The notes under the pieces are model-generated. The model was given only the letters and a program-made list of their open reading frames with translations. It did no database searches and was not told the origin of the DNA. This document shows positions 9,270 through 59,470 of a stretch of 64,000 bases of DNA, piece by piece. The stretch spans positions 17,236,001-17,300,000 of the forward strand of contig NC_083279.1 in NCBI RefSeq assembly GCF_963506605.1, given 5' to 3'. The translations under genes were made by a program, and so were the position numbers. Each line of letters begins with the position of its first letter. Position 1 is the first letter of the stretch. This DNA is from Zootoca vivipara. Its lineage: Eukaryota.

Positions 9270-9664
9270 CCATCTGCAGGGTCCTCCCCGCCCACCCGTC
9301 AATCTATTTTTACCAAGGTGCTCTTGACTTGGTGATCTTGGAAGTTCTTAAGAAATGCAAATAGAATATTATTGCCTTGATAAACACATTTGATTAGCCA
9401 CAAGCCTTTACCTTACTGAAAGGGGATGAGCAAGGCTTTCTCAGGAAAGCCAGAAGGATTATTTGATCTAATAAGGGTGTGATATGCTTTCTCATTTATA
9501 ATCATTTAATCCCAAAGGGGTATTATTTGCTGAAGTAAGGCTTGCATTAGATTGTGATTCTGGATTCTGGTTGCAGTATGAAACCTTCTGCTTCTGTCCA
9601 TCACAAGGATACTCTCATGAATTGAACCAGAGCAAAATTTGACACATAACTATAGGTCAGATAA

Positions 9665-10013
9665 GGGACCCAGGTGGCGCTGTGGTTAAACCACTGAGCC
9701 TAGGGCTTGCTGATCAGAAGGTCGGTGGTTCGAATCCCTGTGACGGGGTGAGCTCCCATTGCTTGGTCCCAGCTCCTGCCAACCTAGCAGTTCGAAAGCA
9801 CGTCAAAATGCAAGTAGATAAATAGGAACTGCTACAGCGGGAAGGTAAACGGCGTTTCCATGTGCTGCTCTGGTTCGCCAGAAGCGGCTTTGTCATGCTG
9901 GCCACATGACCTGGAAGCTATACGCCGGCTCCCTCGGCCAATAATGTGAGATGAGTGCGCAACCCCAGAGTCGGTCATGACTGGACCTAATGGTCAGGGG
10001 TCCCTTTACCTTT
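9665..10013 (+). mobile_element. Sauria SINE
   Basis: GGGACCCAGGTGGCGCTGTGGTTAAACC...GGTTCGAATCC (A/B boxes)...GGGTCCCTTTACCTTT; near-identical copies elsewhere in the window. Confidence 0.9.
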
Positions 10014-10082
10014 ATAGGTCAGATACAGAGTCATCCGTTGATGGCTGATATATGCATGTCTATTGTATCATATGCTTAACTA

Positions 10083-16151: not shown

Positions 16152-16196
16152 GTGTAGTGAACCCTGCTTTTCCAGAGACCTATGGCTCCTGTCTGA

Positions 16197-16546
16197 GGGA
16201 CCCAGGTGGCGCTGTGGTTAAACCACTGAGCCTAGGGCTTGCTGATCAGAAGGTCGGCGGTTCGAATCCCTGTTACGGGGTGAGCTCCCGTTGCTCGGTC
16301 CCAGCTCCTGCCAACCTAGCAGTTCGAAAGCACGTCAAAATGCAAGTAGATAAATAGGAACCGCTACAGCGGGAAGGTAAACGGCGTTTCCATGTGCTGC
16401 TCTGGTTCGCCAGAAGTGGCTTTGTCATGCTGGCCACATGACCTGGAAGCTATACGCCGGCTCCCTCGGCCAATAATGCGAGATGAGCACGCAACCCCAG
16501 AGTCGGTCACAACTGGACCTGATGGTCAGGGGTCCCTTTACCTTTT
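16197..16546 (+). mobile_element. Sauria SINE
   Basis: Same sequence family as 9665-10013. Confidence 0.9.
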
Positions 16547-23039: not shown

Positions 23040-23815
23040 CGATAAAGAATTCCAGAAGTATCTATCCAAACTAGATGAATTAGCATTAAAATGGCAAATG
23101 CAGTTTAATGTAAGGAAGTGCAAAGTGATCACCCAGGGGCAAAAAAAATTCTATATTCATATATATACTAGTGGGGGTCTGATTTTGTAACAAATAACCA
23201 TATAATGCAGTTGTCATGGATAATTCAATGAAAATCAGAACCATAGAACTGTAGAGTTGGAAGGGACCCTGAGGATCATCTAGTCCAACCCCATCAATGC
23301 AGGAATATGCAGCTTTCCCATGCAGGGATCGAACCTGCAACCTTGGCATTATTAGCACCATACTCTAACCAACTGAGCTATCTAGGCTGTCCCGATGTCA
23401 ACCTGTTGTGTGGCGCCCATTTAAAAAAAGGCAAGTTCCATGTTAGGGATCATTAGGAAATGGACTGAAATTAAAACTGCCAATATCGTAATATTATACA
23501 AAGATAAGATGTGACTGCACTTGGGATGTTGCTACAGCTCAAAATGATATTGTAGAGCTGGGAAAGTTTCTGAAAAGGCCAACCCAAATAGTCAAAGGGC
23601 TGGGGCAACTCTCCTATGAGGATACGTTACATTTGGTGCTTATAAAGTTAGAGCAACAAAACAGAGTAGTGGGGAGCTAATAGAGGTGTACAGTATGTGA
23701 TTATTCATAGTGTGGAGAAAGGTTATAACGTGGCCATAATGAAGGTGAGTATTGGAAGATTCAGGATGCACAAAAGGAAGGACTTCGTCATACACTACAC
23801 AATTAAACTATGGAA
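23040..23815 (+). mobile_element. Degenerate CR1 ORF2 fragment interrupted by a SINE
   Basis: Translates as ...LSKLDELALKWQMQFNVRKCKV..., a CR1 RT C-terminal motif; similarity continues after 23390. Confidence 0.7.
23238..23390 (-). mobile_element. tRNA-derived SINE with CR1 tail (POM/Squam-type)
   Basis: Minus strand reads TAGCTCAGTTGGTTAGAG...GGTTCGATCCC...GGGGTTGGACTAGATGATCC...TTCCAACTCTACAGTTCTATGGTTCT. Confidence 0.8.
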
Positions 23816-23894
23816 GAGGGGTAGACCTATTCTTGGGCCTTGGATAATGTGTGAACAAACTCTTGGTTTTGCCTCCATTCTTTATTAAAGCCAT

Positions 23895-23934
23895 TGTTGT
23901 TGCTTAGTCGTTTAATCGTGTCCGACTCTTTGTG
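23895..23934 (-). mobile_element. BovB (RTE) 3' end, left half of the Ngaro target
   Basis: TTGCTTAGTCGTTTAATCGTGTCCGACTCTT matches 45171-45201. Confidence 0.8.
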
Positions 23935-24324
23935 TGGCTATGTCCCTCCTTCCCACATAATCAAGACTCGTGACACAGAGATTAAGATTTAATTGGGTGG
24001 TTAAGGCCACAACTTTATTGATAAGCATGTTGAGCGGAATTGGCTTAGGCGTTGGAACCTAACAGACTATATCCGACTCCAACCCGTGTGTTGGAGTCCC
24101 TGAGAAGTTAACCACCAGCAAGGAGCCCCGCGATGTAGATCTACTAGAGCTCCTCCTGTGGCCACCGAAGGGGCGTGCCCTACGGCCCAGGCAACTCCAG
24201 GCTCAGGACCAAGCGACGCCCCCGGAATCCTTTAACGGAATTACTTCTCCCGATTTGGGCAGCCGTTGACGTAATCTGCCCCTCCTCCTTCTATTGTTAT
24301 GCAAATTTCCAACGCCTAACCGCC
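23928..24324 (-). repeat. Split direct repeat B2 (3' terminus), 397 bp
   Basis: Identical by eye to 24699-25095 (offset 771); minus-strand AATAAA at 24019-24014. Confidence 0.95.
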
Positions 24325-24482
24325 TAACCTAAGTTGTGACGACATGCTACGGGGTAGGCGAAAAACCCATCATGGCTAGCCCAGTATGGGAAAAGTCCTA
24401 CCCGGCCCGCTGACTAACCAGGCAACCGACTCCCGTCCATAGCAGCGTCCCCTTACCTCTTTTTAAGGGGTGGGTGGGCGGG

Positions 24483-24705
24483 TGAACTGTTCGCTCCGGC
24501 GAACAAGGGGAAAAGAGGTCGGCTTCCCGCCTGCGGGGAGCTTTAAAACTGCCGGCTCCGCCCCGACCATTCTCATTGGCTGGTCGGGGATGACGCAGGC
24601 GGGAAGCCACCAACGCGTAGGGGCTGAACTTGCAGCCCCTACGCGGTGGTGCAGTCGGTCGGCCCACAACGCCGCTTCCGTCGCAGGCGCGGAAGCGGCT
24701 TTGTG
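24483..24705 (-). repeat. Split direct repeat A2, 223 bp
   Basis: Identical by eye to 31612-31834 (offset 7129). Confidence 0.95.
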
Positions 24706-25095
24706 TGGCTATGTCCCTCCTTCCCACATAATCAAGACTCGTGACACAGAGATTAAGATTTAATTGGGTGGTTAAGGCCACAACTTTATTGATAAGCATG
24801 TTGAGCGGAATTGGCTTAGGCGTTGGAACCTAACAGACTATATCCGACTCCAACCCGTGTGTTGGAGTCCCTGAGAAGTTAACCACCAGCAAGGAGCCCC
24901 GCGATGTAGATCTACTAGAGCTCCTCCTGTGGCCACCGAAGGGGCGTGCCCTACGGCCCAGGCAACTCCAGGCTCAGGACCAAGCGACGCCCCCGGAATC
25001 CTTTAACGGAATTACTTCTCCCGATTTGGGCAGCCGTTGACGTAATCTGCCCCTCCTCCTTCTATTGTTATGCAAATTTCCAACGCCTAACCGCC
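24699..25095 (-). repeat. Split direct repeat B1
   Basis: Identical by eye to B2; overlaps A2 by the 7-bp core CTTTGTG. Confidence 0.95.
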
Positions 25096-25222
25096 ACTCG
25101 AGCCCCCCCCTGGGCTCGCCGCCAATCCGCTCTCATGCCTTAACCAATAATTAGAGATTAATTGGATATTTTAGGGACTTCATATACTGTTTAAGGGGCC
25201 GTGATCCTCCTCTCTTATTCAC

Positions 25223-25798
25223 CTAATTAAATTCTCTAACACGTAACCATTCTTTGATCCCCATTATTACGTTCTCTAGCCAGACATCATTCCCTCTGGG
25301 CGACAGATGAACACCATCATGACGATAAAGGGCTGCTTCGCTCTGTTTTAACGTTGGATGCGAAATGGCACGACCATTCAAAGACAGGACTCTACGGATT
25401 ACGAAGGAATTCAGGAGCCGTCTGGCTCTGTTCAGGGCGATAGGACAACGACCATCACGCCAACTGCGTCTCTCAAGCAAGGAGGACCAAAGCAGCGTCA
25501 TCCTCGGGCAAATGTCCAAAAGGGCATCAAAGTCTCTGAATATTTGTAATTTTAAGTCCACGGCATTGCGATAGGCAAGATCATTCTCTCCAAGCTGGAC
25601 CACCAGTAGGTCAGGGTAGCCGAGTGAAGCAGCCTGTTCCTGTATTGCCGGCAGCAACTCGTCCCACAGCATGCCTCTCCTCGCAATCCAAGACACCTGG
25701 ACGAATTCTGGAAGGCCCAGCCTGTTCCCTAGGCCCAACTCGATGGCCCTTTCACGAGCCCAATGGACTATGCTATGCCCAGCTATCCAAACCCGCAC
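25223..25798 (-). CDS. SGNH/GDSL-family hydrolase (esterase) ORF of the Ngaro element
   Basis: Motif blocks VWIAGHS (I), RG (II), VQLGEND (III), DGVH (V); annotated start is GTG and there is no upstream ATG. Confidence 0.85.
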   Translation of the reverse strand: MRVWIAGHSIVHWARERAIELGLGNRLGLPEFVQVSWIARRGMLWDELLPAIQEQAASLGYPDLLVVQLGENDLAYRNAVDLKLQIFRDFDALLDICPRMTLLWSSLLERRSWRDGRCPIALNRARRLLNSFVIRRVLSLNGRAISHPTLKQSEAALYRHDGVHLSPRGNDVWLENVIMGIKEWLRVREFN

Positions 25799-25859
25799 GA
25801 TCCGAGAACCTGAAATTCAAGAATGACAACCAGGGATCAGCCAGGCCACCGTGTCGACG

Positions 25860-26768
25860 CTACGCGCGAATATACCTTTTGTACGCATTCGATTTCCACC
25901 TCCCCAAGTCCTGAATTCTTTCGGATGAGAGGCCCAGATGCATGGCTGACGTAGCCGCGCCAATCCTAAAGGAGTGTGCAGAGAATTCATTGGGATTATA
26001 GCCGCAGGAGGCAATGGCCTTGCGCAGAACCCTAGTAAATTGGTGGCGGGTGAGCCTAGCGCTATCCTGGTGGATCAGCAATGGACCTGGGCCGGGGGGC
26101 CGGAGATAAAGATACCGTCTGGTATCTTTAACCGGACATGGACCCGGGGAACCAGTGGCGGGGAGCTTAATAGTCGCGCCCCTTCCCCTCTGGTCCGTTT
26201 TGGAACACCGTATGAGCACCTGCATTTGGGAGTCAACCAGTGACACGTCCTGCATGAGAATGCCGCGTGTGATACCCTGGGGGGAGTCCTCACATACCAC
26301 CTCGCCCACTCTTAGCGCTCCAAAATATGCTATAGAAAAGGCTGCGGAGAAAAGGCGCGCCTCAAATTTGGACCAACAGAGGGACCTCAACTGCCTGTGT
26401 ACCTGAGCCAACATGTCAAAGGTAATGGGACGCCTGGGGTCGCTGACAGGCGGCTGGAGCCTGCGCCAGCCCTCCATAGCCCTACGCAAATGGAAATTGT
26501 CACACGGGTCTGTAAAATAGAGTGCTTTTGAGAAGAATGTGATGGCTGCTGTGTGAATGTTAAGAGTCCTTGGTGCGCGCCCCAGGTTCCTCAAGTGCAC
26601 TACATACTGCATGACCTCCTCCGGGGAAGGTGGGGCCCGAAGGGGAGCAGAGGTCTGTCTCTGCCTGAACGTAGTGAAGTCTGACCAAGCCCGTTTATAC
26701 GAGCTCAGTGTAGACGGGGCAACGGAAGCTAATACTCCCTTTAGGATCTCTCGCTCCCAAGGTTCCAT
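25860..26768 (-). CDS. Tyrosine recombinase (YR)
   Basis: Catalytic motifs GALRVGE (R), SKTDQ (K), HSFRIG (HxxR), LGRWKSNAYKRY (W, Y); ATG start. Confidence 0.95.
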   Translation of the reverse strand: MEPWEREILKGVLASVAPSTLSSYKRAWSDFTTFRQRQTSAPLRAPPSPEEVMQYVVHLRNLGRAPRTLNIHTAAITFFSKALYFTDPCDNFHLRRAMEGWRRLQPPVSDPRRPITFDMLAQVHRQLRSLCWSKFEARLFSAAFSIAYFGALRVGEVVCEDSPQGITRGILMQDVSLVDSQMQVLIRCSKTDQRGRGATIKLPATGSPGPCPVKDTRRYLYLRPPGPGPLLIHQDSARLTRHQFTRVLRKAIASCGYNPNEFSAHSFRIGAATSAMHLGLSSERIQDLGRWKSNAYKRYIRA

Positions 26769-28588
26769 AGCTGTTCCGGGAACGGCTCCGGCGACTGGCT
26801 TGCCTCCGGTGCCAACGATCGGAAGCGATCCATCTGGAAGCGAGACAGAGCATCTGCGATATTATTATTGACCCCTGGCACAAATTTGGCAGAAAAATGC
26901 ATATTCAACTGCAAACTGAGTAACACGAAGTGGCGTAGGAGGGAGGACACCCTCGTCGACCGCGTGGATTGCCGAGATAGAACGCTGACCACCGCCTGGT
27001 TGTCGGTTCTGAAGCAGACCCGCCGGTTCCTGAAATCCTCGGACCATAGGTGTACGGCTACTACTATGGGAAAGAATTCTAAGAATGTTAAGTCGCGTGT
27101 GATGTCTGTACCCTGCCAGCTGGCCGGCCAGCGCTGCGAGCACCATTTACCTCTGAAGTAGACCCCGAAACCCAAAGCACCTGCCGCATCGGATTGCACT
27201 TGGAAATCGGCCCGCAGCAACATGGTGTCCTGCCATAGTGACACCCCGTTGTAGCTCTCCAGAAACATCAGCCAGGATTCAAGGTCGGCCCTGACCCCGC
27301 AGGGGAGGCGCTTCCTATGATAAGGTTTGGTTAAGCCCACCGTGAGCCTAGCTAAGCGCCGGCAGAATGGGCGACCCGGTGAAATAACCCTGCAAGCAAA
27401 GTTGAGGTGCCCTAGCAGTGATTGCATTTGTCTAAGGGTAAGTTTTTTAAGGGGAATGAGTTGCCTAATGGTCTCTTTGAGGGCGAGTAGTTTATCAGAC
27501 GGCAGGCGTGAGGTTTGTGCGACCGTGTCCAGTTCTATGCCCAAGTACGTAAGGCGTGAGACGGGCCCTTCGGTTTTTTCGGCAGCCAGTGGAACCCCTA
27601 ACTCCTCTGCGAGAGCTGAGAAGGCCCGCATAAGGCCTGCACACTCGGAACTGCGAGCCCCAGCCACGAAGAGAAAGTCATCCAGATAATGCGAGACCCC
27701 TGGAAGGCCTGTCCTGAAGCGCAGGGCCCAGTCCAGGAATGTGCTAAAGGCCTCAAATGCGGCACATGCCACGGAGCAACCCATCGGCATGGCCTTGTCA
27801 ATGAAATATGCCTCATTGAATCTGAAACCCAACCATTTATAGTCCTGCGGGTGAACAGGGAGTAGGCGAAATGCTGATTCGATGTCACATTTCGCCATTA
27901 ACGCCCCCTTGCCAAATTGCCTCACTAACTTCACCGCCTGATCGAATGAGGCATATTTCACAGTGCACAGCTCCTGGGGTATTCCATCATTGACTGACCT
28001 GCCCATCGGGTGGGAAAGATTGTGTATGAGCCGGAATTCCCCGGGCGCCTTCTTGGGGACTATTCCCAATGGGGAGATGTGGAGATCAGGTATCGGTGGC
28101 GACGCGAACGGGCCAGCCACGCGTCCTGCTGAGATTTCCTTGTTAATTTTCTTAATGGCTATATCAGGCCTTTCCCTAATGGATTTTTGATTGGGGGGTT
28201 CACCCGTGCTAGGTGGGGTACGCACGGGAATACGGAAACCTGTTGAAAACCCTTCCCACAGGTATTTTGCTGCATCTCTATTGGGGTAACAGTCAAGCAG
28301 TAGTTTCAGAGGGTGAAGCTTTACAGGGGAGTGGGCCAGGGCGAGTGATCTATTAGTATTTATTAGTCCCCGAGATTGATCCCTGGGGGGCACCTGAGGT
28401 ATTTCTGGGGCCCTGGTGCGAGTTGCCCCTGGCGCCACGAAAGGACTGCCTCCCCTTAAAACACGAAACTCCCGGGTGCTGACCCAAACACTTTTCGCAT
28501 TCGTGGGAGTACTTACAGTTGGGTCGCTGACAAAGGCCCTTGTTATATTCCCAGCAAACCCTGCGTCGCGGGTCCCTCTTGTGCTCAA
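26741..28588 (-). CDS. Reverse transcriptase and RNase H (pol)
   Basis: KCDIESAFR, MPMG and YLDD RT motifs; RNase H motifs SDAAG, LEFFP, TDNQ, IADALSR; true start unclear. Confidence 0.95.
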   Translation of the reverse strand: MSTRGTRDAGFAGNITRAFVSDPTVSTPTNAKSVWVSTREFRVLRGGSPFVAPGATRTRAPEIPQVPPRDQSRGLINTNRSLALAHSPVKLHPLKLLLDCYPNRDAAKYLWEGFSTGFRIPVRTPPSTGEPPNQKSIRERPDIAIKKINKEISAGRVAGPFASPPIPDLHISPLGIVPKKAPGEFRLIHNLSHPMGRSVNDGIPQELCTVKYASFDQAVKLVRQFGKGALMAKCDIESAFRLLPVHPQDYKWLGFRFNEAYFIDKAMPMGCSVACAAFEAFSTFLDWALRFRTGLPGVSHYLDDFLFVAGARSSECAGLMRAFSALAEELGVPLAAEKTEGPVSRLTYLGIELDTVAQTSRLPSDKLLALKETIRQLIPLKKLTLRQMQSLLGHLNFACRVISPGRPFCRRLARLTVGLTKPYHRKRLPCGVRADLESWLMFLESYNGVSLWQDTMLLRADFQVQSDAAGALGFGVYFRGKWCSQRWPASWQGTDITRDLTFLEFFPIVVAVHLWSEDFRNRRVCFRTDNQAVVSVLSRQSTRSTRVSSLLRHFVLLSLQLNMHFSAKFVPGVNNNIADALSRFQMDRFRSLAPEASQSPEPFPEQLWNLGSERS

Positions 28589-29852
28589 ACCTGGTGGACC
28601 TAGGTGGATCCGTATGTTTCCTTTCTACATATGGGACTACGTGATTGCTCCAAAAATGCTGGTGGCGCTGATCCCACCTGGTTTTGGGGTTTTGCGAAGC
28701 ATTCCGACGGAAGTCTTCATCGTAATTCAGCGCTGCCGCCTCCCCGGCCATCCTGTAGGCCATCCTAACATCAGCTATGTAGGCCATAAGGTGCATGGCC
28801 CTTTTTGGATAAGCAGCTGTTATCACTGCAATCCAAATATGCATTCCATCCAGCCAATTCTCGAACGTGCGGTCAGCCCGCGGCGTCCTATGCCTGCGCC
28901 TACCATACTCCTTTCTCTTTTCGCCCTTTCCCAGCGTATGGGACAATGGTAAGAGGGTGAAAATGTCTATAAAATCACCATTCAAGATTTTTTCCCTTGT
29001 TTTATTTGATAAATGGGATCCCAGAATGATATCCGTGTCTGAGTTGGTAGAATACTTTGAGTCCGGTATCAAAGCACCATCCCTCCACTCTAACGTCCCC
29101 TTGAAACCCTTACGGTGGGTGCTGGCTCTCCTCTTATGCACCCACAAAGGAAGACCCATCTGATCCTCTGCAATCCCCCAATAATCCTCCATTGGGATCT
29201 CCTCATCCGAATCGGACGTACCTGAGTCATAGGAGTCGTCATCCTTAGCTCTCTTACGCTTGTTGGTTTTCTTCTTCGCCTTTCCGCTCCGCTGACGCTC
29301 TTCTCCGTCCCGCGACGCCGCTTCGCCACTTCCCGCCGGCCTGGAGTTGTCATCGTCCCCCGATGTATCGGAACCCCCAGCTTCCCTTTGCGCCACTGGT
29401 TGCACAGGCTGGGCCCCTGGGAGACCTGCAATAGACTGTGAGGACTGCCCGGGCGAACCTGCTGCTTGAGCCCCGGCCCCCAGGCTATGGGCATCGGGAG
29501 CATTAGATCGCGCCTTCTGCCCCCGTGTCCGTGGGGCCTGGCTCGCAACGCTTCCAGGCTCGGAGCTAGAGCTGGCGAATAAGGAAGCCGAGGTGCCCGG
29601 CGATCCGCCCTCTGAAAAATAAGTATCTAAGATACAATCCTGAGACTCGGCAGGCTCGACCTGGGACTCACGAGGATCATCCTGCGTGGCCTCAGCTGCG
29701 GGGGCCAAAGATTTTGCAATGGCCGCCAGCTGTTTGCAAACATCCAGCTGGGTCTTCTGAAGCGTGGAGACCACACGTACCAAGGCCTCAGTCTTGTCCT
29801 GAGCTGCAGGAGTCTTGGAGGGGGCCGAACCTCGCACACGCTTGGGTGCCAT
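28353..29852 (-). CDS. Gag-like ORF1 (first ATG at 29852, MAPKR...)
   Basis: N-terminal amphipathic helix, basic NLS-like KAKKKTNKRKRAK, C-terminal Cys/His cluster CWEYNKGLCQRPNCKYSHECEKCLGQHPGVSC typical of YR-retrotransposon gag. Confidence 0.85.
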   Translation of the reverse strand: MAPKRVRGSAPSKTPAAQDKTEALVRVVSTLQKTQLDVCKQLAAIAKSLAPAAEATQDDPRESQVEPAESQDCILDTYFSEGGSPGTSASLFASSSSEPGSVASQAPRTRGQKARSNAPDAHSLGAGAQAAGSPGQSSQSIAGLPGAQPVQPVAQREAGGSDTSGDDDNSRPAGSGEAASRDGEERQRSGKAKKKTNKRKRAKDDDSYDSGTSDSDEEIPMEDYWGIAEDQMGLPLWVHKRRASTHRKGFKGTLEWRDGALIPDSKYSTNSDTDIILGSHLSNKTREKILNGDFIDIFTLLPLSHTLGKGEKRKEYGRRRHRTPRADRTFENWLDGMHIWIAVITAAYPKRAMHLMAYIADVRMAYRMAGEAAALNYDEDFRRNASQNPKTRWDQRHQHFWSNHVVPYVERKHTDPPRSTRFEHKRDPRRRVCWEYNKGLCQRPNCKYSHECEKCLGQHPGVSCFKGRQSFRGARGNSHQGPRNTSGAPQGSISGTNKY

Positions 29853-30184
29853 TATCAGGTTGTAGCCAAACACTATTCAGTATTATTATTATAATTATTT
29901 ATAATTTGCTTATTTATTTATTATTATTACCCTGTTTACCTCTATATATTATTATTTATAATTATATAATTATTTTATTTATATCTTAGTTTATTTTAGA
30001 TATATAATTATACGGGCTTATAATTGTCAGGTTACCGGTTTAATGCTATTATAATGTATTATTGCTAAGCCTCACCACAGGGGGGACGAATGAGCTATGT
30101 ATATAAGCGAAAGACAAGTCCCAAGTCGCTAAGCTCAGCAAAAACTTTTTGGCCTCCGCTGAACAGATCGCCTATAATGCCTCG

Positions 30185-30510
30185 GCAGCGGGTTGGACTG
30201 GATGACCCTTGTGGTCTCCTCCAACTCTATGATTCTATGACCCTAATCGATTGCTCCCTGGATAAGCCACTCGCCCGCACACAGCTAAATGCTTTGCAGA
30301 GGGTTGTTCTGGAAGGCCCCCGTGGACTCTTCCAGCTCTTATGATTCTATGATTCTATGTTTATAATTAGTTGTTCCAAAATTCCACTGGCCAGCACTCA
30401 GCTAATGCTTGGCGAGGGGGTTGGACTGGATGGCCCCTGTGGCCTCCTCCGACTCTATGTTTCTATGGCTCTAATTTGTTGTTCGCAGATACACCACTGG
30501 CCACAGGCGC
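30185..30510 (+). repeat. Triplicated ~115-bp unit containing a CR1-type 3' tail, inside the Ngaro leader
   Basis: GGGTTGGACTGGATGACCC...CCAACTCTATGATTCTATG at ~30190, ~30301 and ~30417. Confidence 0.75.
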
Positions 30511-30699
30511 TGGCCTCAAGATGCCAATCAACTTTAACTAGCTTATTATATCTTAAAAATTAAGTTCCCTATGAAAAACTCGATTGTGTACTGTGAATAT
30601 TAACTAGTAAAACCCAGCCAGCCGATAGGGTGCACTAGTCCACCAGACACCACAGAAGTAAATAGCAGTAAATGTAGCCAGGCAGCACAAGTGGCCACT

Positions 30700-30980
30700 C
30701 TCAAGATGGCCGCTGAAGAAGGGACAGTGTTTGCCCACACCTAAAATGGCTGCCGGGACAGGGTTTGCCAACACCTAAAATGGCTGCTGGGACTGAGTCT
30801 GCCCACACCCAAAATGGCTGCCGGGACTGGGTTTGCCCCCACCTAAAATGGCTGCTGGGACTGAGTCTGCCCACACCCAAAATGGCTGCCGGGACTGGGT
30901 TTGCCCCCACCTAAAATGGCTGCTGGGACTGAGTTTGCCCACACCTAAAATGGCTGCCGGGACACCTAAGATGGCTGCCG
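30700..30980. repeat. 34-bp minisatellite (~8 units) in the Ngaro leader
   Basis: AAAATGGCTGC at 30743, 30777, 30811, 30845, 30879, 30913 and 30947. Confidence 0.9.
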
Positions 30981-31611
30981 GCAGGAGTACTCACACGTGC
31001 CCTTCTTAAAATGGCGGCTGAAGAAAGGACAGGGGCTTGCCCTTAACCAAAATGGCTGCCGGACAGGATCACAACAAACAGATAAGTAACAAGAGCCGAA
31101 GCAAAGCAACCTAAACAGGGTATACGTGGCCGGCAAAGTAAACAAGCATGGAAAACTAACCACAGCCGTAGCAAAACAATATACACCGTAAGCAGGACGC
31201 CCACCACCCGATTCCAGGGGATAAGGCAAGGAACCACCAGGAACTATGACGGGGGGGGGGGCCCACGTTCACTCACCCAGCTGTACCGCGAAGAAAACAG
31301 ATCCAAGGTACGAGGGGGAGAGGGCGGCAGCCGCCTCCGCTCTTAGCCACCCAGCGAGCTTGCCAGCAGGAAAAACAAGAGGGCAGCAGGAATCCGCGGC
31401 GGATGGGGTGCTCCTCTCGGCTGCGAAAGCCCCAGCGCTCCCTCGGTGGTTAACTGCTTTCAGGCTGCAGCTGAGTGTCGTATATCCCCGGCGCTGCACC
31501 TCCGTGAACAGCTGGTAAAACAGCGAGGCCCCGAAGGACAACCAAAAACAAGCTAACTGGAACAGCGAGGCACTACAGGAAATAAGGACGGAAAAGCGCG
31601 ACAAGCTATGC

Positions 31612-31834
31612 TGAACTGTTCGCTCCGGCGAACAAGGGGAAAAGAGGTCGGCTTCCCGCCTGCGGGGAGCTTTAAAACTGCCGGCTCCGCCCCGACCATT
31701 CTCATTGGCTGGTCGGGGATGACGCAGGCGGGAAGCCACCAACGCGTAGGGGCTGAACTTGCAGCCCCTACGCGGTGGTGCAGTCGGTCGGCCCACAACG
31801 CCGCTTCCGTCGCAGGCGCGGAAGCGGCTTTGTG
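31612..31834 (-). repeat. Split direct repeat A1 (5' terminus)
   Basis: Identical by eye to A2. Confidence 0.95.
31668..31730 (-). promoter_or_regulatory. Putative Pol II promoter in repeat A
   Basis: Minus-strand order TGCGTCA (CRE-like), CCAAT, GGGGCGG (GC box), TTTAAA (TATA-like), pointing towards gag; duplicated in A2. Confidence 0.5.
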
Positions 31835-31940
31835 ACCCCATGGACCAGAGCACACCAGGCACTCCTGTCTTCCACTGCCTCCTGCAGTTTGGTCAGACTC
31901 ATGTTGGTGGCTTCGAGAACACTGTCCAACCATCTCGTCC
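31828..31940 (-). mobile_element. BovB fragment, right half of the Ngaro target
   Basis: GTGACCCCATGGACCAGAGCACACCAGGCAC... continues collinearly with 45203-45311. Confidence 0.85.
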
Positions 31941-32445
31941 TTTAATTCACATTTTGGTAATTACAAATGACTCAGTTATGAGAGTGTTTCTCAGATTGTA
32001 CTTCAATTAAGGTCATGGGAATTCATATAAAATAAATTCTGAAGGGGGGGAATGTTAAATAATGAACAGCACTTGTGGGTTTTTTAAAAAATCCATTGTG
32101 CTGCTAATTAGCTAAAGTTCATGTCTCCTGACTACAAATCAGGGAAGACTTTACTGACTTGATCAGTTGAATAAAGGAACCAGAGAGCTGTGGTGTTTTG
32201 TTTTGAAACACAAATGCTGTGCTTCCAATGATACTTACTGGGATAATTTGTACTAAAGGAGTTACTGACCACGTTTCTTAAACTAGAAAACATGCACTCT
32301 CTGATCCAGCTAGTCCCTTGCTGGATGTTGAATGATATACACAGAGGTGGGGCCAATAATGTAGAACACTTTTTGTAGGATTATATACATTTCTGTAGAC
32401 TTGTTTTATCAATAACTCTCAGTCATTATAACCGTGGACTCTTAT

Positions 32446-35017: not shown

Positions 35018-35723
35018 TCCTGCAAACGTGAGGTGATGGGTGCTCCGAACTTCGCAATAGGGTGCTCCGAGCACAGCAGCAGACAGAACAGTTCTTCCCG
35101 GATAATGAACTGTATATAAACAGCTTACTACACATTTAAGTGATCGCTGATCTATGGTCATTTGATGTACCTTTGGGAACAATTAATTTGCTGATAAGGA
35201 ATTATCATTGAAACAGTTCATTATCCTGGAAGAACTGTTCTGTCTGCTGCTCGGAGCACCCTATTGTGACCATAGCTGCCAAGTACCCCGTTTTCCCCGG
35301 GAAACCCCCCGTTTTTACTTACCTTTTCCCGGCGGTCCCCCGTATCACTTTGTCTCCCGTTTTTCTCCGTTCTTTTCTCCTGTCGGCGGCCATTTTTTCT
35401 GATTTGCCCATCTATGGGCACCGAAAATGGCTGCCGCTGGCTTCGAAAGCCGCGTCTACGCATGTCCAGAAGTGCGTAGACGTGACTTCCGGTGTTGTCG
35501 TCGGCCATTTTTGGTGCCCATAGATGGGCAGAGCGACCCCAGAAGTTGTGTCTATGCGCTTCCGGACATGCATAGACGCGACTTTCGAAGCCGGCTGCGG
35601 CCATTTTCGGTGTCCATAGATGGGCAAAGCGGCTGCCGGGTCATGCGGCTGCCGGTCCCGGATTCTGCAGTCCGGAACTTGGCAGGTATGATTGCGACGT
35701 TCATAGCACCCACGTTTGTAGGA
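35018..35723. repeat. Fold-back palindromic element whose right arm is split by a MITE
   Basis: 35018-35113 is the reverse complement of 35213-35270 plus 35691-35723. Confidence 0.7.
35271..35690. mobile_element. hAT-type MITE (CATAGCTGCC family) with internal palindromes
   Basis: TIR CATAGCTGCCAAG/CTTGGCAGGTATG; 8-bp TSD ATTGTGAC/ATTGCGAC. Confidence 0.8.
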
Positions 35724-45170: not shown

Positions 45171-46050
45171 TTGTTTAGTCGTTTAGTCGTGTCCGACTCT
45201 TCGTGACCCCATGGACCAGAGCACACCAGGCACCCCTGTCTTCCACTGCCTCCTGCAGTTTGGTCAAACTCATGTTAGTAGCTTCAAGAACACTGTCCAA
45301 ACATCTCGTCCTCTGTCATCTTCTTCTTCTTGTGCCCTCCATCTTTCCCAACATCGGGGTCTTTTCCAGGGAGTCTTCTCTTCTCATGAGGTGGCCAAAG
45401 TATTGGAGCCTCAGCTTCAGGACCTGTCCTTGCAGTGAGCACTCAGGGCTGATTTCCTTCAGAATGGATAGGTTTGATCTTCTTGCAGTCCAAGGGACTC
45501 TCAAGAGTCTCCTCCAGCACCATAATTCAAAAGCATCAATTCTTCGGCATTCAGCCTTCTTCATGGTCCAGCTCTCACTTCCATACATCACTACTGGGAA
45601 AACCATAGCTTCCACTATACAGGCCTTTGTCGGCAAGGTGATGTCTCTGCTTTTTAAGATGCTGTCTAGGTTTGTCATTGCTTTTCTCCCAAGAAGCAGG
45701 CGTCTTTTAATTTTGTGACTGCTGTCCCTATCTGCAGTGATCATGGAACCCAAGAAAGTAAAATCTTTCACTGCCTTCATTTCTTGCCCTTCTATTTGCC
45801 AGTAGGTGATGGGACCAGTGGCCATGATCTTAGCTTTTTTGATGTTGAGCATCAGACCATATTTTGTGCTCTCCTCTTTCACTCTCATTAAGAGGTTCTT
45901 GAATTCCTCCTCACTTTCTGCTATCAAAGTTGTGTCTTCTGCATATCTGAGGTTGTTGATATTTCTTCCAGCAATCTTAATTCCATTTGGGATTCATCCA
46001 GTCCAACCTTTCGCATGGTGAATTCTGCATATAAATTAAATAAGCAGTTA
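45171..46050 (-). mobile_element. BovB (RTE) LINE 3' fragment
   Basis: ORF 45316-45927: ...LNIKKAKIMA...FTFLGS...MYGSESWT.KKAE.RRIDAFELWCWRRLLRVPWTARRSN, the classic BovB RT C-terminus. Confidence 0.92.
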
Positions 46051-47029
46051 AATAGCTTTGCCAAAAAGAAAAAGAGAGAGAGAGATGCAGAAAGCACAAT
46101 GATGAGACCCAACAAGAACAAATGTGAAACATTACGGAAGAAAGATGAGCCAAAGACACAATAATAAGCAGGAGGAGGGAAGTTAAAAAAGCATGATTTC
46201 TTACTCATAGGACTATTGCCATTTTATTATGCATTAAGAGATGCAGAGTTGCCAAGATTTGTGAAGCAAACATAAGCCATACTCAGTGCTGGTAAAGCCT
46301 CATCTGCAGAATGGCACTTTATTCTGGAAAACACTCAAAAGAAAGATTTGCACAAGCTGTAAAGAAGAAAAACCAGAGGAAAATAAGCCCTCCAAGCTTC
46401 ATAGACTTTCATCTTCCTTTCTGAAAGTTAGTGCTGTTGTCTTGTACCTCTTCCCCTGCTGTGGCTATTGCCTATTTGTTTTTAAGTTTGCATGAAAAGC
46501 AGCTGCTCTTTCATTACAGGCCGCATTTCATGAAATAAACAAGAATCTGATTGCATTGTCACTTTCTCCAGCGAGCATCACTGGCTGCTTGTCTCATGAC
46601 ATACTGATTTTGAAATTTTACTACTTACTCTGGACAGTTTTTTGCTAAAGTCACACCATAGGCCTTGATAATGGATCTAATTTCAAGTTATCAGCCAGCT
46701 TTCTCCCTCCAGTCAGTTTCTGAAAGCCAATTCACAGTTCCTAAGATTAAACCATCTGTTGCTGGTGGCAACAGTTTTTCATTTTATAAATTATGGATCC
46801 ATTTCCTTAGAACCTTGGTGCTACATTCCTTGCTGAAGACTTCATTTGGTCTCCAATACTTTTTTGTTTGTTTGTACATTTCATACATCCAGTCCTGTAG
46901 AACTGCACTTGTGTAACATGTCCTAGCTTGTATAGTGTATTCTGCAGTATTTCATGAAGAATCAGGAAGGTGAAAAAAGTCTAAAATAAATGATGAGTTG
47001 TAGCAAGAAACAGACTACTGTCCACTGTA

Positions 47030-47385
47030 AACCACTGAGCCTCTTGGGCTTGCTGATCGGAAAGTCAGCGGTTTGAATCCTCACAACGGAGTGAGCTCCC
47101 GTTGCTCTGTCCCAGCTCCTACCAACCTAGCAGTTCAAAAGCATGCCAGTGCAAGTAGATAAAGAGGTACCACTGCATCAGGAAGGTAAGCAGTGTTTCT
47201 GTGCACTCTGGCACTCGCCACGGTCCTCCGTGCACCGGTAGAGGTTTAGTCATGCTGGTCACATGACCCAGAAAGCTGTCTGTGGACAAACACTGGCTTC
47301 CTCAGCCTGAAAGTGAGATGAACACCACAATTCCATAGTCACCTTTGACTGGACTTAACTGTCCAGGGGTCCTTTACCTTTTTTT
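47030..47385 (+). mobile_element. Sauria SINE (older subfamily)
   Basis: AAACCACTGAGCCTCTTGGGCTTGCTGATC...GGGGTCCTTTACCTTT. Confidence 0.85.
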
Positions 47386-52476: not shown

Positions 52477-52528
<52 letters not shown>

Positions 52529-52932
52529 GGGACCCAGGTGGTGCTGTGGGCTAAACCACTGAGCCTAGGGCTTGCTGATCAGGTCAGCGGTTCGAATCCC
52601 TGTGACAGGGTGAGCTCCCGTTGCTTGGTCCCAGCTCCTGCCAACCTAGCAGTTCGAAAGCACATCAAAATGCAAGTAGATAAATAGGAACCACTATAGC
52701 AGGAAGGTAAACGGCGTTTCCATGTGCTGCTCTGCTTTGCCAGAAGCGGCTTTGTCATGCTGGCCACATGACCTGGAAGCTATACGCCGGCTCACTCAGC
52801 CAATAATGCGAGATGAGCGCGCAACCCCAGAGTCGGTCACGACTGGACCTAATGGTCAGGGGTCCCTTTACCTTTAATATTAATAATAGAATTGGATGTC
52901 CCTATTTTCACTAGAGAAATTTTGGAGGGTAT
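52171..52932 (+). mobile_element. Non-autonomous element with L2-like tail (copy 3), with a SINE inserted in its (AAT)n tract
   Basis: Homologous to 3488-3890; resumes at ~52876 after the SINE. Confidence 0.65.
52529..52875 (+). mobile_element. Sauria SINE
   Basis: Same family as 9665-10013. Confidence 0.9.
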
Positions 52933-57806: not shown

Positions 57807-59282
57807 GGTGCCATCTTGAATAAAATATGGTATTGGGAGTCAGGTAAGCCCCACCCCGCATAATCAATCTCAAGATGTAGTGCACACACACCATTTGAAT
57901 GGCAATGCTCATCAACTCAGGGGGTGGCCCCCTCAAATATTTTACTGGGAGGCCAAAGGGACCTCGGCCCCTCGGCCCCTAGGTATTGGCTCCTATGTGA
58001 GAATATGTTCAAGTACCTTCTTGCTAGACTTCCATGGGTTCTATTCTCGAGTGTGCCATAGAAGACATGGGGTTTGCCAGATCACTTCCTATGCAGCACT
58101 ACTCCTCTATTGGTCACCAGCTGTGCTGGTGTGGGAAGCCTCAATGAGTTCTTAGCAAACGGTGTGATTGGCCCTTGCATGTATTGTCACAGGGACATGG
58201 AGCCCGATATAAATGTGACCATTTGACCATGCCTCCTGGGTAATGTATAATTTTAACTTTGGCTGCGAACTGACAGAGGCCTCAAATAATAATTGAAGTT
58301 TCTGATGTAGATGACAAATGATATTTGGTCTCTAGAAGTAATCTAAGCTGCATGCTAGTTTCTTCTCTGACACGAGAATCAGGAGGGTACTTGTACAAGA
58401 TGATATGTTTGTAGATTTATGCTTCTTTTATTCTGAAGAATACTTAGCCTGCAGGGGGAAAATATATATAGAAAAGGACCCTTCTAGTATGTGCTTTGCT
58501 TCTTCAGATGGGTCCCTGTTGACTCTCTGGTTGCCTCTGTTGACATTACAGAGAACCTCCAGTCAAGGGAGCCCAAAAAAATATTTCCTTCTGACAACTC
58601 TTATAACAGTGAAAAGCAGTGTATATTTAGAGCTTGTTTCTCTATAGAGAGTCCTTGCTTGTGCAGTCCATGTCCTTGTTCACACAGCTACTGCCCCCAT
58701 TGACCTAAAATTTGCCACTGTTGAAACACCAGTGACCTTTATTTCAAGTTAACAAAGAGAAAGGGGAGGAGAGTTTTCTCTACTGCCTTTAAAGAGTGCT
58801 TAAAAGAAAAAAGAAAATAAGAAAATCCAATGTCAAAACATTGAAATTAGATCATTCTCATGATGCAAAACACTAACCTCCAGCCTTGACATGCAGGGAT
58901 GCATACTTTGAATTGCTTTTGTTCAGTTGCTGCCAATGGGAATGAATCAGACTAAAGCCAACACATCTGGTTTCTGTGGCTTATGGACTGAAATGAAAAT
59001 GTAGCAAGAAGCTAAAAATTCAGACTGTTGCCCAGTTAAAGGGTTTTCAATTGATCAACCATATCTCTCTTGAGTCAACTGATTGTTAAAAAGCAAATAA
59101 ATCTCCATATTACCAAACTGTCAAGAGAGGTGCATTTTTTTTTAGATATTAAAATACATTAAAATAAACTGGGTGATCACTCACAATTTCAAGTATAAAA
59201 TAACTGTTCCTGGTTAAAAGAGGAGGTTATATAGATTGTGGAGTTTCCTGATGATTATATTAGGATCTGTTCTTTTAAACTT

Positions 59283-59470
59283 AGAATCATAGAGTTGGAA
59301 GAGACCACAAGGGCCATCCAGTCCAACCCCCTGCCAAGCAGGAAACACCATCAAAGCATTCTTGACATATGCCTGTCAAGCCTCTGCTTAAAGACCTCCA
59401 AAGAAGGAGACTCCACCACACTCCTTGGCAGCAAATTCCACTGTCGAACAGCTCTTACTGCCAGGAACTT
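59283..59470 (-). mobile_element. CR1 3' fragment
   Basis: AGAATCATAGAGTTGGAAGAGACCACAAGGGCCATCCAGTCCAACCCC...TTCCACTGTCGAACAGCTCTTACTG. Confidence 0.8.

Follow-up and report, generated by a model that had tools for sequence, protein, structure and literature searches.

Elements of the Ngaro superfamily are placed in the DIRS order, and those of the Xenopus DIRS-53_XT type are described as bearing an SGNH ORF (PMC9210276, PMC8547959, PMC3783388). For the DIRS1-like elements, a 3-bp circular junction and NTT termini are reported, with no target duplication (PMC3266345, PMC7192593), and the entry of tyrosine-recombinase retrotransposons into the chromosome is presented so far as a model and not as a tested pathway (PMC7192593). 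In integrons, it is the folded strand of attC that recombines, at AA|C, and the resulting junctions are resolved by replication (PMC5027507).

In the 64,000-nt stretch of the Zootoca vivipara genome analysed here (the window), the sequence at 23930-31829 is a young and intact Ngaro tyrosine-recombinase retrotransposon, a class assigned from its repeat layout and ORF content. Its split direct repeats are ordered A1-ORFs-B1-A2-B2, with A of 223 nt and B of 397 nt, each pair being 100% identical and B1 adjoining A2. On the minus strand, these correspond to the outer 5' repeat A1 (31612..31829, terminating in CT), B1, the internal copy of the 3' repeat delimited by repeat comparison (24701..25095), A2, the internal copy of the 5' repeat (24483..24700), and the outer 3' repeat B2 (23930..24324; the exact repeat of 397 nt counts two host bases). 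A unique 158-nt spacer located between A2 and B2 (24325..24482, minus strand) is retained in solo B-spacer-A units, and solo repeat units are dispersed through the genome. A repeat search also identified a 34-bp tandem repeat in the 5' non-coding region (30687..30997).

The element is inserted in the 3' end of a BovB-like LINE, on the minus strand, of which the left piece (23894..23929) finishes with the host bases CT and the right piece (31830..31941) opens with the host target TTGTG, with T at a CpG position. The family name BovB is that of the first-pass annotation and is used here as a probable label; the translation of the tail is the broken end of an ORF, which runs on into RT-LINE sequence at 45171-46047. 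That same annotation had reported the heptamer CTTTGTG at the left end, the B1/A2 junction and the right end, and all three copies are present (23928-23934, 24699-24705 and 31828-31834). The outermost bases of the flanking copies belong to the host, and because these copies hold just five (left) and two (right) element bases, the limits of the element are 23930-31829 and not 23928-31834. Excision of 7,900 bp rejoins the tail, as had been proposed, with 93.9% identity over 114 nt between 31828-31941 and 45199-45312. The latter belongs to the uninterrupted reference copy (45171..46047, minus strand), in which 45199-45205 does read CTTCGTG, the CpG position (45202) being occupied by C.

The gag-like, RT/RNase H and tyrosine recombinase ORFs share the minus strand, and the internal repeats lie downstream of the recombinase. 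ORF1 (28353..29876), with a C-terminal Cys/His cluster, is called gag-like by its position, a Pfam match being absent. The reverse transcriptase/RNase H ORF (26741..28624) matches RVT_1 with an E of 3e-12; its RNase H assignment relies on an acidic motif judged by eye, with no Pfam match, and the ORF stops shortly past this motif. In the recombinase (25860..26861) the catalytic R-K-H-R-W-Y residues are intact, the PF00589 match (E 1e-4) falls under the gathering score, and the closest solved relatives, by both sequence and fold, are Cre, the integron integrase 2a3v ranking only 46th. A fourth ORF on the same strand (25223..25816, 197 aa from stop to stop) is SGNH-hydrolase-like; it gave no direct Pfam match at E<=0.01, and shares 49% identity with the C-terminal region of P0047, a protein bearing PF13472, while the named proteins closest to it are from lacertid lizards. 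No methyltransferase (Dam) domain was matched at E<=0.01 in the four ORFs scanned, which separates the element from PAT and DIRS1.

The crossover point and the target motif were derived from 225 outer ends (103 A and 122 B) of one family group. The crossover is constant at CT|TT, and the targets read |TTVY, that is, R-B-A-A| on the sense strand of the element. Among the 122 B ends, 120 show the element bases at core positions 3-7. Of the 103 A ends, 101 have CT or TT, the two junction types, at positions 1-2, and where the host differs at positions 3-4 (13/103), the mismatch is confined to the A side. The element spacer, which is the product expected had a second exchange left heteroduplex, was found at none of the 122 B ends. 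The earlier proposal of a tyrosine-recombinase crossover between the B|A junction and the host, here with no true target duplication, is supported. The motif itself skips one position, with TT in 90 of 103 targets, G at +3 in 22 (equal to background) and Y at +4 in 96; the host is free at core positions 1-2, and positions 5 and 7 do not match the element. A divergent family with G in its own arm inserts at AA in 35/35 targets, with a purine at -4 in 34/35 (A 20, G 14), a pattern indicating recognition by protein rather than homology. A second arm in the host, with AA at -8/-7 in 18/122 against a background of 9.6%, is suggestive only. Three of 14 5' ends (L160, L165, L172) lack AA or are short of 1-2 bases, and 27 of 80 B-selected loci yielded no A outer end within the stretch fetched.

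The identity of the first host base was also considered. A match to its hairpin partner, suggested by 10 of 13 ends, failed as a preset prediction in 44 new ends (A+G 21/44, p 0.74), which start with A (20), T (22), C (1) or G (1). In 14 of the 22 ends that start with T, the next base is G, as in the element's own spacer, and this fits ordinary micro-homology; the bias is specific to the family, with A/T in 42/44 compared to C/T in 81/122 of the main group. In a 146-bp satellite, insertions in the same register (L021/L022 and L101) correspond to independent elements, each unit holding, by a rough estimate, only about a dozen motif sites.

A hairpin is predicted across B1|A2 (24662..24709, minus strand; z -4.3 sense and -3.9 antisense), with an outer arm of 5 bp, one mismatch by the crossover, an inner stem of 10 bp, a 9-nt loop and one bulged base, and is whole only where B and A meet. 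It spans the AA-N6-TT core of the circle junction (24693..24702), in which the crossover lies at 24700/24701 (CT|TT on the plus strand, AA|AG on the sense strand), and outperformed 200/200 shuffles on both strands. Among 18 distinct junctions, 97.2% of the cells are paired in the sense and 93.5% in the antisense strand, and one column shows G-C/A-T compensation, a covariation resting on few events given that the junction rows are related. Twenty loci of other families of the lizard were considered, of which 14 were parsed automatically, two by hand and four remained unparsed; 14 junctions from other families are predicted to fold similarly (z -2.5 to -5.8), and their arms show compensation (CACAA/TTGTG against CGCAA/TTGCG). 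The +1 pair is non-Watson-Crick in 15/15 junctions and a T.G wobble occurs in the inner arm in 14/15; a G.T wobble of the sense strand would likewise pair as G.U at the RNA level. The sense strand has the lower energy in 15/15 anchored segments, whereas wider folding windows slightly favor the antisense fold for L167, L168, L169 and L259. The bulged base is not conserved, being absent in the L168 family. Among 80 metagenome loci, of which those of at least 4 kb were parsed, none passed the automatic repeat filter, and the one junction found by hand (L218) displays a weak fold of -10.6 kcal/mol, calculated without shuffles. Within the titles, abstract beginnings and passages covered by our literature search, no prior description of a Ngaro target motif or junction hairpin was found; the one hairpin passage retrieved concerns priming in DIRS-1.

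Based on the constant crossover and the predicted fold, we hypothesize, with roughly even confidence, that the element integrated by one strand exchange from the B|A junction hairpin into a host TTVY site. A cDNA circle would join B and A, and the sense strand, either free or extruded as a cruciform, would fold and thereby bring AA-N6-TT into a double-stranded form. The Cre-like recombinase would then bind the AA-ending arm on hairpin and chromosome alike, cut 3' of AA and exchange one strand, and the junction would be resolved by replication. Under such a resolution, homology in the 6-bp spacer would not be required, and the insertion would leave no duplication. Among the points counted against a folded strand are the Cre-like enzyme, a strong hairpin inside A, the failed prediction for the first base and the unconserved bulge. 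The polarity reported for the single-stranded DIRS-1 cDNA, antisense, is opposite to that of the strand needed by the proposed geometry.

A possible, though rather unlikely, alternative is the classical one, as proposed for DIRS1-like elements, in which the circle is double-stranded and crosses over with chromosomal DNA within a 2-3-bp match containing TT, and the hairpin serves the RNA or reverse transcription (priming, template switching or end restoration) instead of integration. It agrees with the Cre-like enzyme and with published accounts of recombination at a 3-bp junction and of NTT termini (PMC3266345, PMC7192593). Likewise, a second hairpin, off the junction and inside A (24608..24651, also 31737-31780), emerged from the fold scan, in which 6 of 74 folding windows have z<=-3; it is as strong as the junction hairpin, and A may accordingly be structured for RNA reasons. 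The excess of TG just beyond the cut in one family and the TTGTG targets (7/103 against 3.1 expected, p 0.04) also favor a match of this kind. Nevertheless, two exchanges over an unmatched 6-bp spacer should give products with both edges or mixed spacers, of which there are 0/122, and both the constant mismatch at the crossover base and the presence of a T.G wobble in the partner arm, instead of a second perfect TT, are left unexplained.

An improbable variant of the folded strand, resembling CTX phage, has the antisense first-strand cDNA adopting the same hairpin and being cut there at CT|TT, with TT as the pairing homology past the cut. The identical single crossover would be predicted, the antisense strand also folds, single-stranded DIRS-1 cDNA is reported as antisense (PMC7192593), and CTX is described as integrating a folded strand with enzymes devoid of the I2 domain (PMC4792948). 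The better pairing of the sense strand and its lower energy in every anchored segment argue against it, and so does a target preference that skips +3 and ignores the element's own base at +4, which is unlike pairing.

Very improbable is the crossover put forward by the first-pass annotation, an attP/attB-like exchange matched over 7 bp, for which decayed BovB tails would be hit repeatedly and by preference: the match is 7/7 for this copy and for another, independent insertion at that tail position by an element of a different family (the two elements being 71-80% identical), and TTGTG targets are in slight excess, but CTTTGTG occurs in none of 92 unselected reconstructed targets (a 6-of-7 match in four), CT occupies positions 1-2 in just 11/122, and only two tail insertions were detected, the unselected one with p 0.03-0.09. 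Within the window, CTTYGTG is not over-represented (13 seen, 16.3 expected). These two insertions, among 853 B ends detected genome-wide with internal junctions counted, compare with an expectation of 0.03-0.09 when only the short motif is considered, and the enrichment has a p of about 0.03-0.09 because one of them is the copy that prompted the finding. Repeated insertion into the tail was found, but its enrichment is borderline, at most a weak excess, and the BovB tails are not a main target. The suggestion that CpG decay may create a usable site was supported: both insertions carry the T form, which is present in 14 among the first 100 tails listed, and TT exceeds TC (2/103) among the targets, with a per-site ratio of 27:1 that depends on just two TC sites. 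The identity at this copy would come from a decayed tail that happened to read CT|TTGTG, and the seven-letter match is mostly luck, the relatives sharing just TT with their insertion sites. The link with BovB is a small case of CpG decay making one repeat a landing site for another.

With a crossover resolved to the base, a target logo built from the ends of one family group and a defined substrate about 50 nt long, this genome opens the integration question to purified recombinase and oligonucleotides. If the single-strand exchange is true, folded-DNA recombination would extend to animals, beyond bacteria and phages, and would suggest an integrase that requires only a minimal target and inserts without a duplication.

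Compared with Ngaro elements of the DIRS-53_XT type, as described in the passages available to us, the present element shares the A1-ORFs-B1-A2-B2 order, the overlapping gag-like, RT/RH, YR and SGNH-like ORFs, the lack of a methyltransferase and the solo units; it differs in its unique spacer between A2 and B2, and in the lacertid origin of the nearest named relatives of an SGNH ORF described for amphibians. With the DIRS1-like elements it has in common the AA|N / N|TT crossover, a short target motif and no duplication, but those carry inverted repeats and an ICR in place of split direct repeats, whereas here just TT is shared, there is also selection for Y at +4, and any base may precede TT. 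Like the site predicted here, the attP of CTX phage is a folded single strand, used there by XerCD recombinases devoid of an I2 domain (PMC4792948); in contrast to this system, Ngaro has its own recombinase, degenerate targets instead of dif and little spacer homology. As in integron attC x attI recombination (PMC5027507, PMC4792948), an imperfect hairpin is predicted to restore a two-arm site with a single crossover point 3' of AA and unpaired bases beside it, and the structure, judged from fold prediction and covariation, is retained while the sequence changes. Unlike attC, however, the enzyme resembles Cre more closely than IntI, 5'-AAC-3' is not conserved (the base after AA being A, T or G according to the family), conserved extrahelical bases on the opposite arm are lacking and the bulge lies on the same arm as AA, the targets are dispersed host sites and the substrate comes from reverse transcription. 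By this analogy, which we hold tentatively and at somewhat less than an even chance, Ngaro would be a eukaryotic form of integron-style recombination, with a Cre-like enzyme, a self-folded cDNA donor and an R-B-A-A target of about four bases, in which one strand is exchanged, no double-strand break is made and replication finishes the reaction, and the ICR of DIRS1, which pairs with both ends, may represent this device in a different arrangement.

The element at 23930-31829 is a Ngaro retrotransposon on the minus strand, arranged A1-ORFs-B1-A2-spacer-B2 with split direct repeats of 223 nt (A) and 397 nt (B), both pairs 100% identical, an anatomy that fits the definition of Ngaro in excerpts of earlier work (PMC9210276, PMC8547959, PMC3783388, PMC4157794). 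Its four open frames are gag-like, RT/RNase H (RVT_1, E 3e-12), tyrosine recombinase (PF00589, E 1e-4) and SGNH-like, the recombinase residues R, K, H, R, W and Y are conserved in 32/32 aligned relatives, and the closest named proteins come from lacertid lizards. Fragments resembling a host repeat lie in the 5' non-coding region (30155-30503), with related pieces at 59282-59340 and, inverted, at 23232-23295.

The first-pass annotation had noted CTTTGTG at both ends and at the internal B1|A2 junction, and CTTCGTG in an uninterrupted copy of the host repeat; these were confirmed at 23928, 24699 and 31828, and at 45199, respectively. Likewise, deletion of 7,900 bp rejoins the interrupted tail; its right-hand portion shares 93.9% identity across 114 nt with the uninterrupted copy, which extends to 46047, encodes the end of an RT-LINE ORF and is presumably BovB. 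The 7-mer CTTYGTG is not enriched in the window (13 matches, 16.3 expected). Other repeats in the window are a 350-bp dispersed repeat with three copies 94-97% identical (9664-10014, 16196-16545, 52528-52876) and a more distant one (47028-47382), and MITE-like inverted repeats at 35075-35251 and 35403-35631, with 39-nt arms 97% complementary and 93-nt arms 85% complementary.

The same annotation had read the seven bases as an attP/attB-like core, an interpretation only partly supported by the other copies, which point to a two-base crossover instead. Copies number in the hundreds (606 and 550 matches in two end searches; 853 B ends genome-wide with a wider pattern), and loci were taken from the first 100 listed of each end search plus the best 30 of another, so that contigs C1-C5 are over-represented. 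The analysis covered 103 A and 122 B outer ends, excluding the window's copy, loci obtained with BovB-aimed queries and exact duplicates but retaining the near-duplicate pair L093/L108. Positions 3-7 of B ends read TTGTG in 120/122, although the query itself partly fixed 5-7; positions 1-2 are variable, with CT in 11/122. A ends have CT (74 of 103) or TT (27 of 103) at positions 1-2 (partly query-fixed), representing two junction types, and their positions 3-7 vary, starting with TT in 90/103; the base after TT is C in 42, A in 28, G in 22 and T in 11, the next is a pyrimidine in 96/103, and no clear preference follows. Since B ends are nearly constant at 3-7 and A ends are almost always CT or TT at 1-2, the crossover is placed at CT|TT and the target at |TTVY, and the insertions carry no true target duplication. 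A CTTTGTG target occurs in none of 92 two-ended insertions, and a 6/7 match in four. TTGTG targets are slightly over-represented (7 against 3.1 expected, p 0.04), and a weak effect of homology may thus persist.

Decayed BovB tails had also been proposed as recurrent targets. Searching the genome for each of the two junctions within the tail, with up to two mismatches allowed, gave four matches, two of which are not element ends; the true tail insertions found are the window's element and one on contig C12, from a different family (71-80% identical), with T at the CpG position as well. There are at least 23,045 intact tails; among the first 100 listed, 14 have the T form (counted by eye), and the exact T-form 14-mer occurs 4,345 times against 119 for a control. 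The motif alone predicts 0.03-0.09 tail insertions, and the one unselected insertion has p 0.03-0.09. CpG decay does make a better target, by turning TC into TT, but tails receive only about 0.3% of insertions. The crossover involves two bases, and the 7-bp core and the BovB preference are for the most part coincidental. Further insertions lie, at differing positions and strands, in two BovB-like bodies and two repeats that we take to be SINE-like (L016/L017, L107, L081, L117). In L160 (G000:C2:96797121-96807120; 5' end near 1079), an other-family element lies in opposite orientation and without an AA target directly after GTCCGACTC, a motif shared with the BovB tail, in a presumably SINE-like host repeat.

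Solo B-spacer-A units, roughly 250-850 bp long and at normal TTVY targets, make up the majority of copies (L006, L008, L031, many of L031-L096); several elements of the divergent CGCAA family lack A2-B2 instead (L260, L265-L267, L269). In L026 (G000:C2:108971134-108974201), two solo units of different subfamilies are oppositely oriented and separated by about 300 bp. Head-to-tail B-spacer-A arrays with a period of about 730-1,050 bp occupy some element 3' ends (L010-L012, G000:C7:14308360-14312154; L098; L174; L258), perhaps as products of unequal crossing-over or of small circles inserting at the junction of the element itself. Two independent insertions, in L021/L022 (G000:C12:98586-109062) and L101 (G000:C2:119573700-119582300), hit a 146-bp satellite at one and the same register, the elements being 95.6% and the flanks about 90% identical. 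Target-flanking host sequence is duplicated beside the element in L129 (34 bp) and L218 (96 bp, with the first hairpin arm missing at the 5' end), possibly as scars of aberrant resolution.

Where B1 meets A2, the plus strand (24693-24702) has AA followed, after six bases that differ among subfamilies, by TT; AA is constant in 103/103 A ends. A predicted fold-back over 24662-24709 has a 5-bp outer arm, half from B and half from A, one mismatch at the base next to the crossover and a 10-bp inner stem, and scores better than all 200 shuffles for either strand (z -4.3 for the sense, -3.9 for the antisense). In 18 different natural junctions, the share of cells that pair is 97.2% on the sense and 93.5% on the antisense strand; one column alternates between G-C and A-T (5 and 13 rows), and one-sided changes yield G.T on the sense strand, although the rows are related and the covariation therefore represents few events rather than 18. 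Querying with a distant recombinase brought up other families, with 14 of 20 fetched loci parsable, and all 14 junctions, including those of families with arms CGCAA/TTGCG, show a like fold with the crossover after AA. With the window's junction included, position +1 is non-Watson-Crick in 15/15 and a T.G wobble is kept in the inner arm in 14/15, which argues that the partner arm is maintained for pairing and not as a second perfect duplex site. A weaker fold, with the B end at AA, was found elsewhere (L218, one non-lizard metagenome locus). Repeat A holds a second near-perfect hairpin of 44 nt (24608-24651 and 31737-31780), 10 nt from that of the junction.

Tyrosine recombinases cleave a single strand, retain its 3' end and exchange the 5' end. 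On the sense strand, R-B-A-A immediately before the crossover is common to element and targets, and little is common after it. In CGCAA-family targets AA is found in 35/35 and a purine at -4 in 34/35, A in 20 against the element's own G in 14, a preference that, judged from sequence, fits recognition by a binding arm and not base pairing. A second exchange across the unmatched spacer should sometimes leave the element's spacer at B ends, and its presence in 0/122 counts against such an exchange. We hypothesize that a folded junction strand would act as donor in a single strand exchange with the target, resolved by replication, which would jointly account for the target and end patterns. Against a folded donor, the other hairpin of repeat A matches that of the junction in strength, the sense-strand wobble is compatible with an RNA-level role as well, and the antisense fold is slightly better for four junctions in wider windows. 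Three 5' ends lack AA or one to two bases, and 27/80 B-selected loci show no A outer end in the fetched stretch. A hairpin-partner rule for the first host base, set beforehand, failed in 44 new ends (A 20, T 22, C 1, G 1); 14 of the 44 start with TG, as in the element's own spacer, and an alternative hairpin register, proposed after the fact, pairs this TG.

In the published model for DIRS1-like elements, as excerpted, a 3-bp circular junction with NTT termini meets an identical host triplet without duplication (PMC3266345, PMC7192593), and a short TT core is thus expected; for DIRS-1 the reported single-stranded cDNA is antisense (PMC7192593), the strand opposite to the one that a folded sense-strand donor would need. 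The folded junction is apparently an undescribed feature, directly testable: neither a Ngaro target logo nor a junction hairpin as attachment site was found in the literature searched, including the accessible part of PMC6681497, and supplements and the work of Goodwin and Poulter, outside this search, could bear on novelty. The closest solved relative of the recombinase is Cre, by profile (E 1e-14) and, with a predicted model (pLDDT 92.6), by fold (TM 0.60-0.76). The system differs from the integron in that its recombinase is not IntI-like and its hairpin bulge is not conserved across junctions, which weighs against a folded site; the likeness lies in integron attC sites, shown in the excerpts consulted to recombine at AA|C as folded donors, by one exchange that replication resolves (PMC5027507, PMC4792948).
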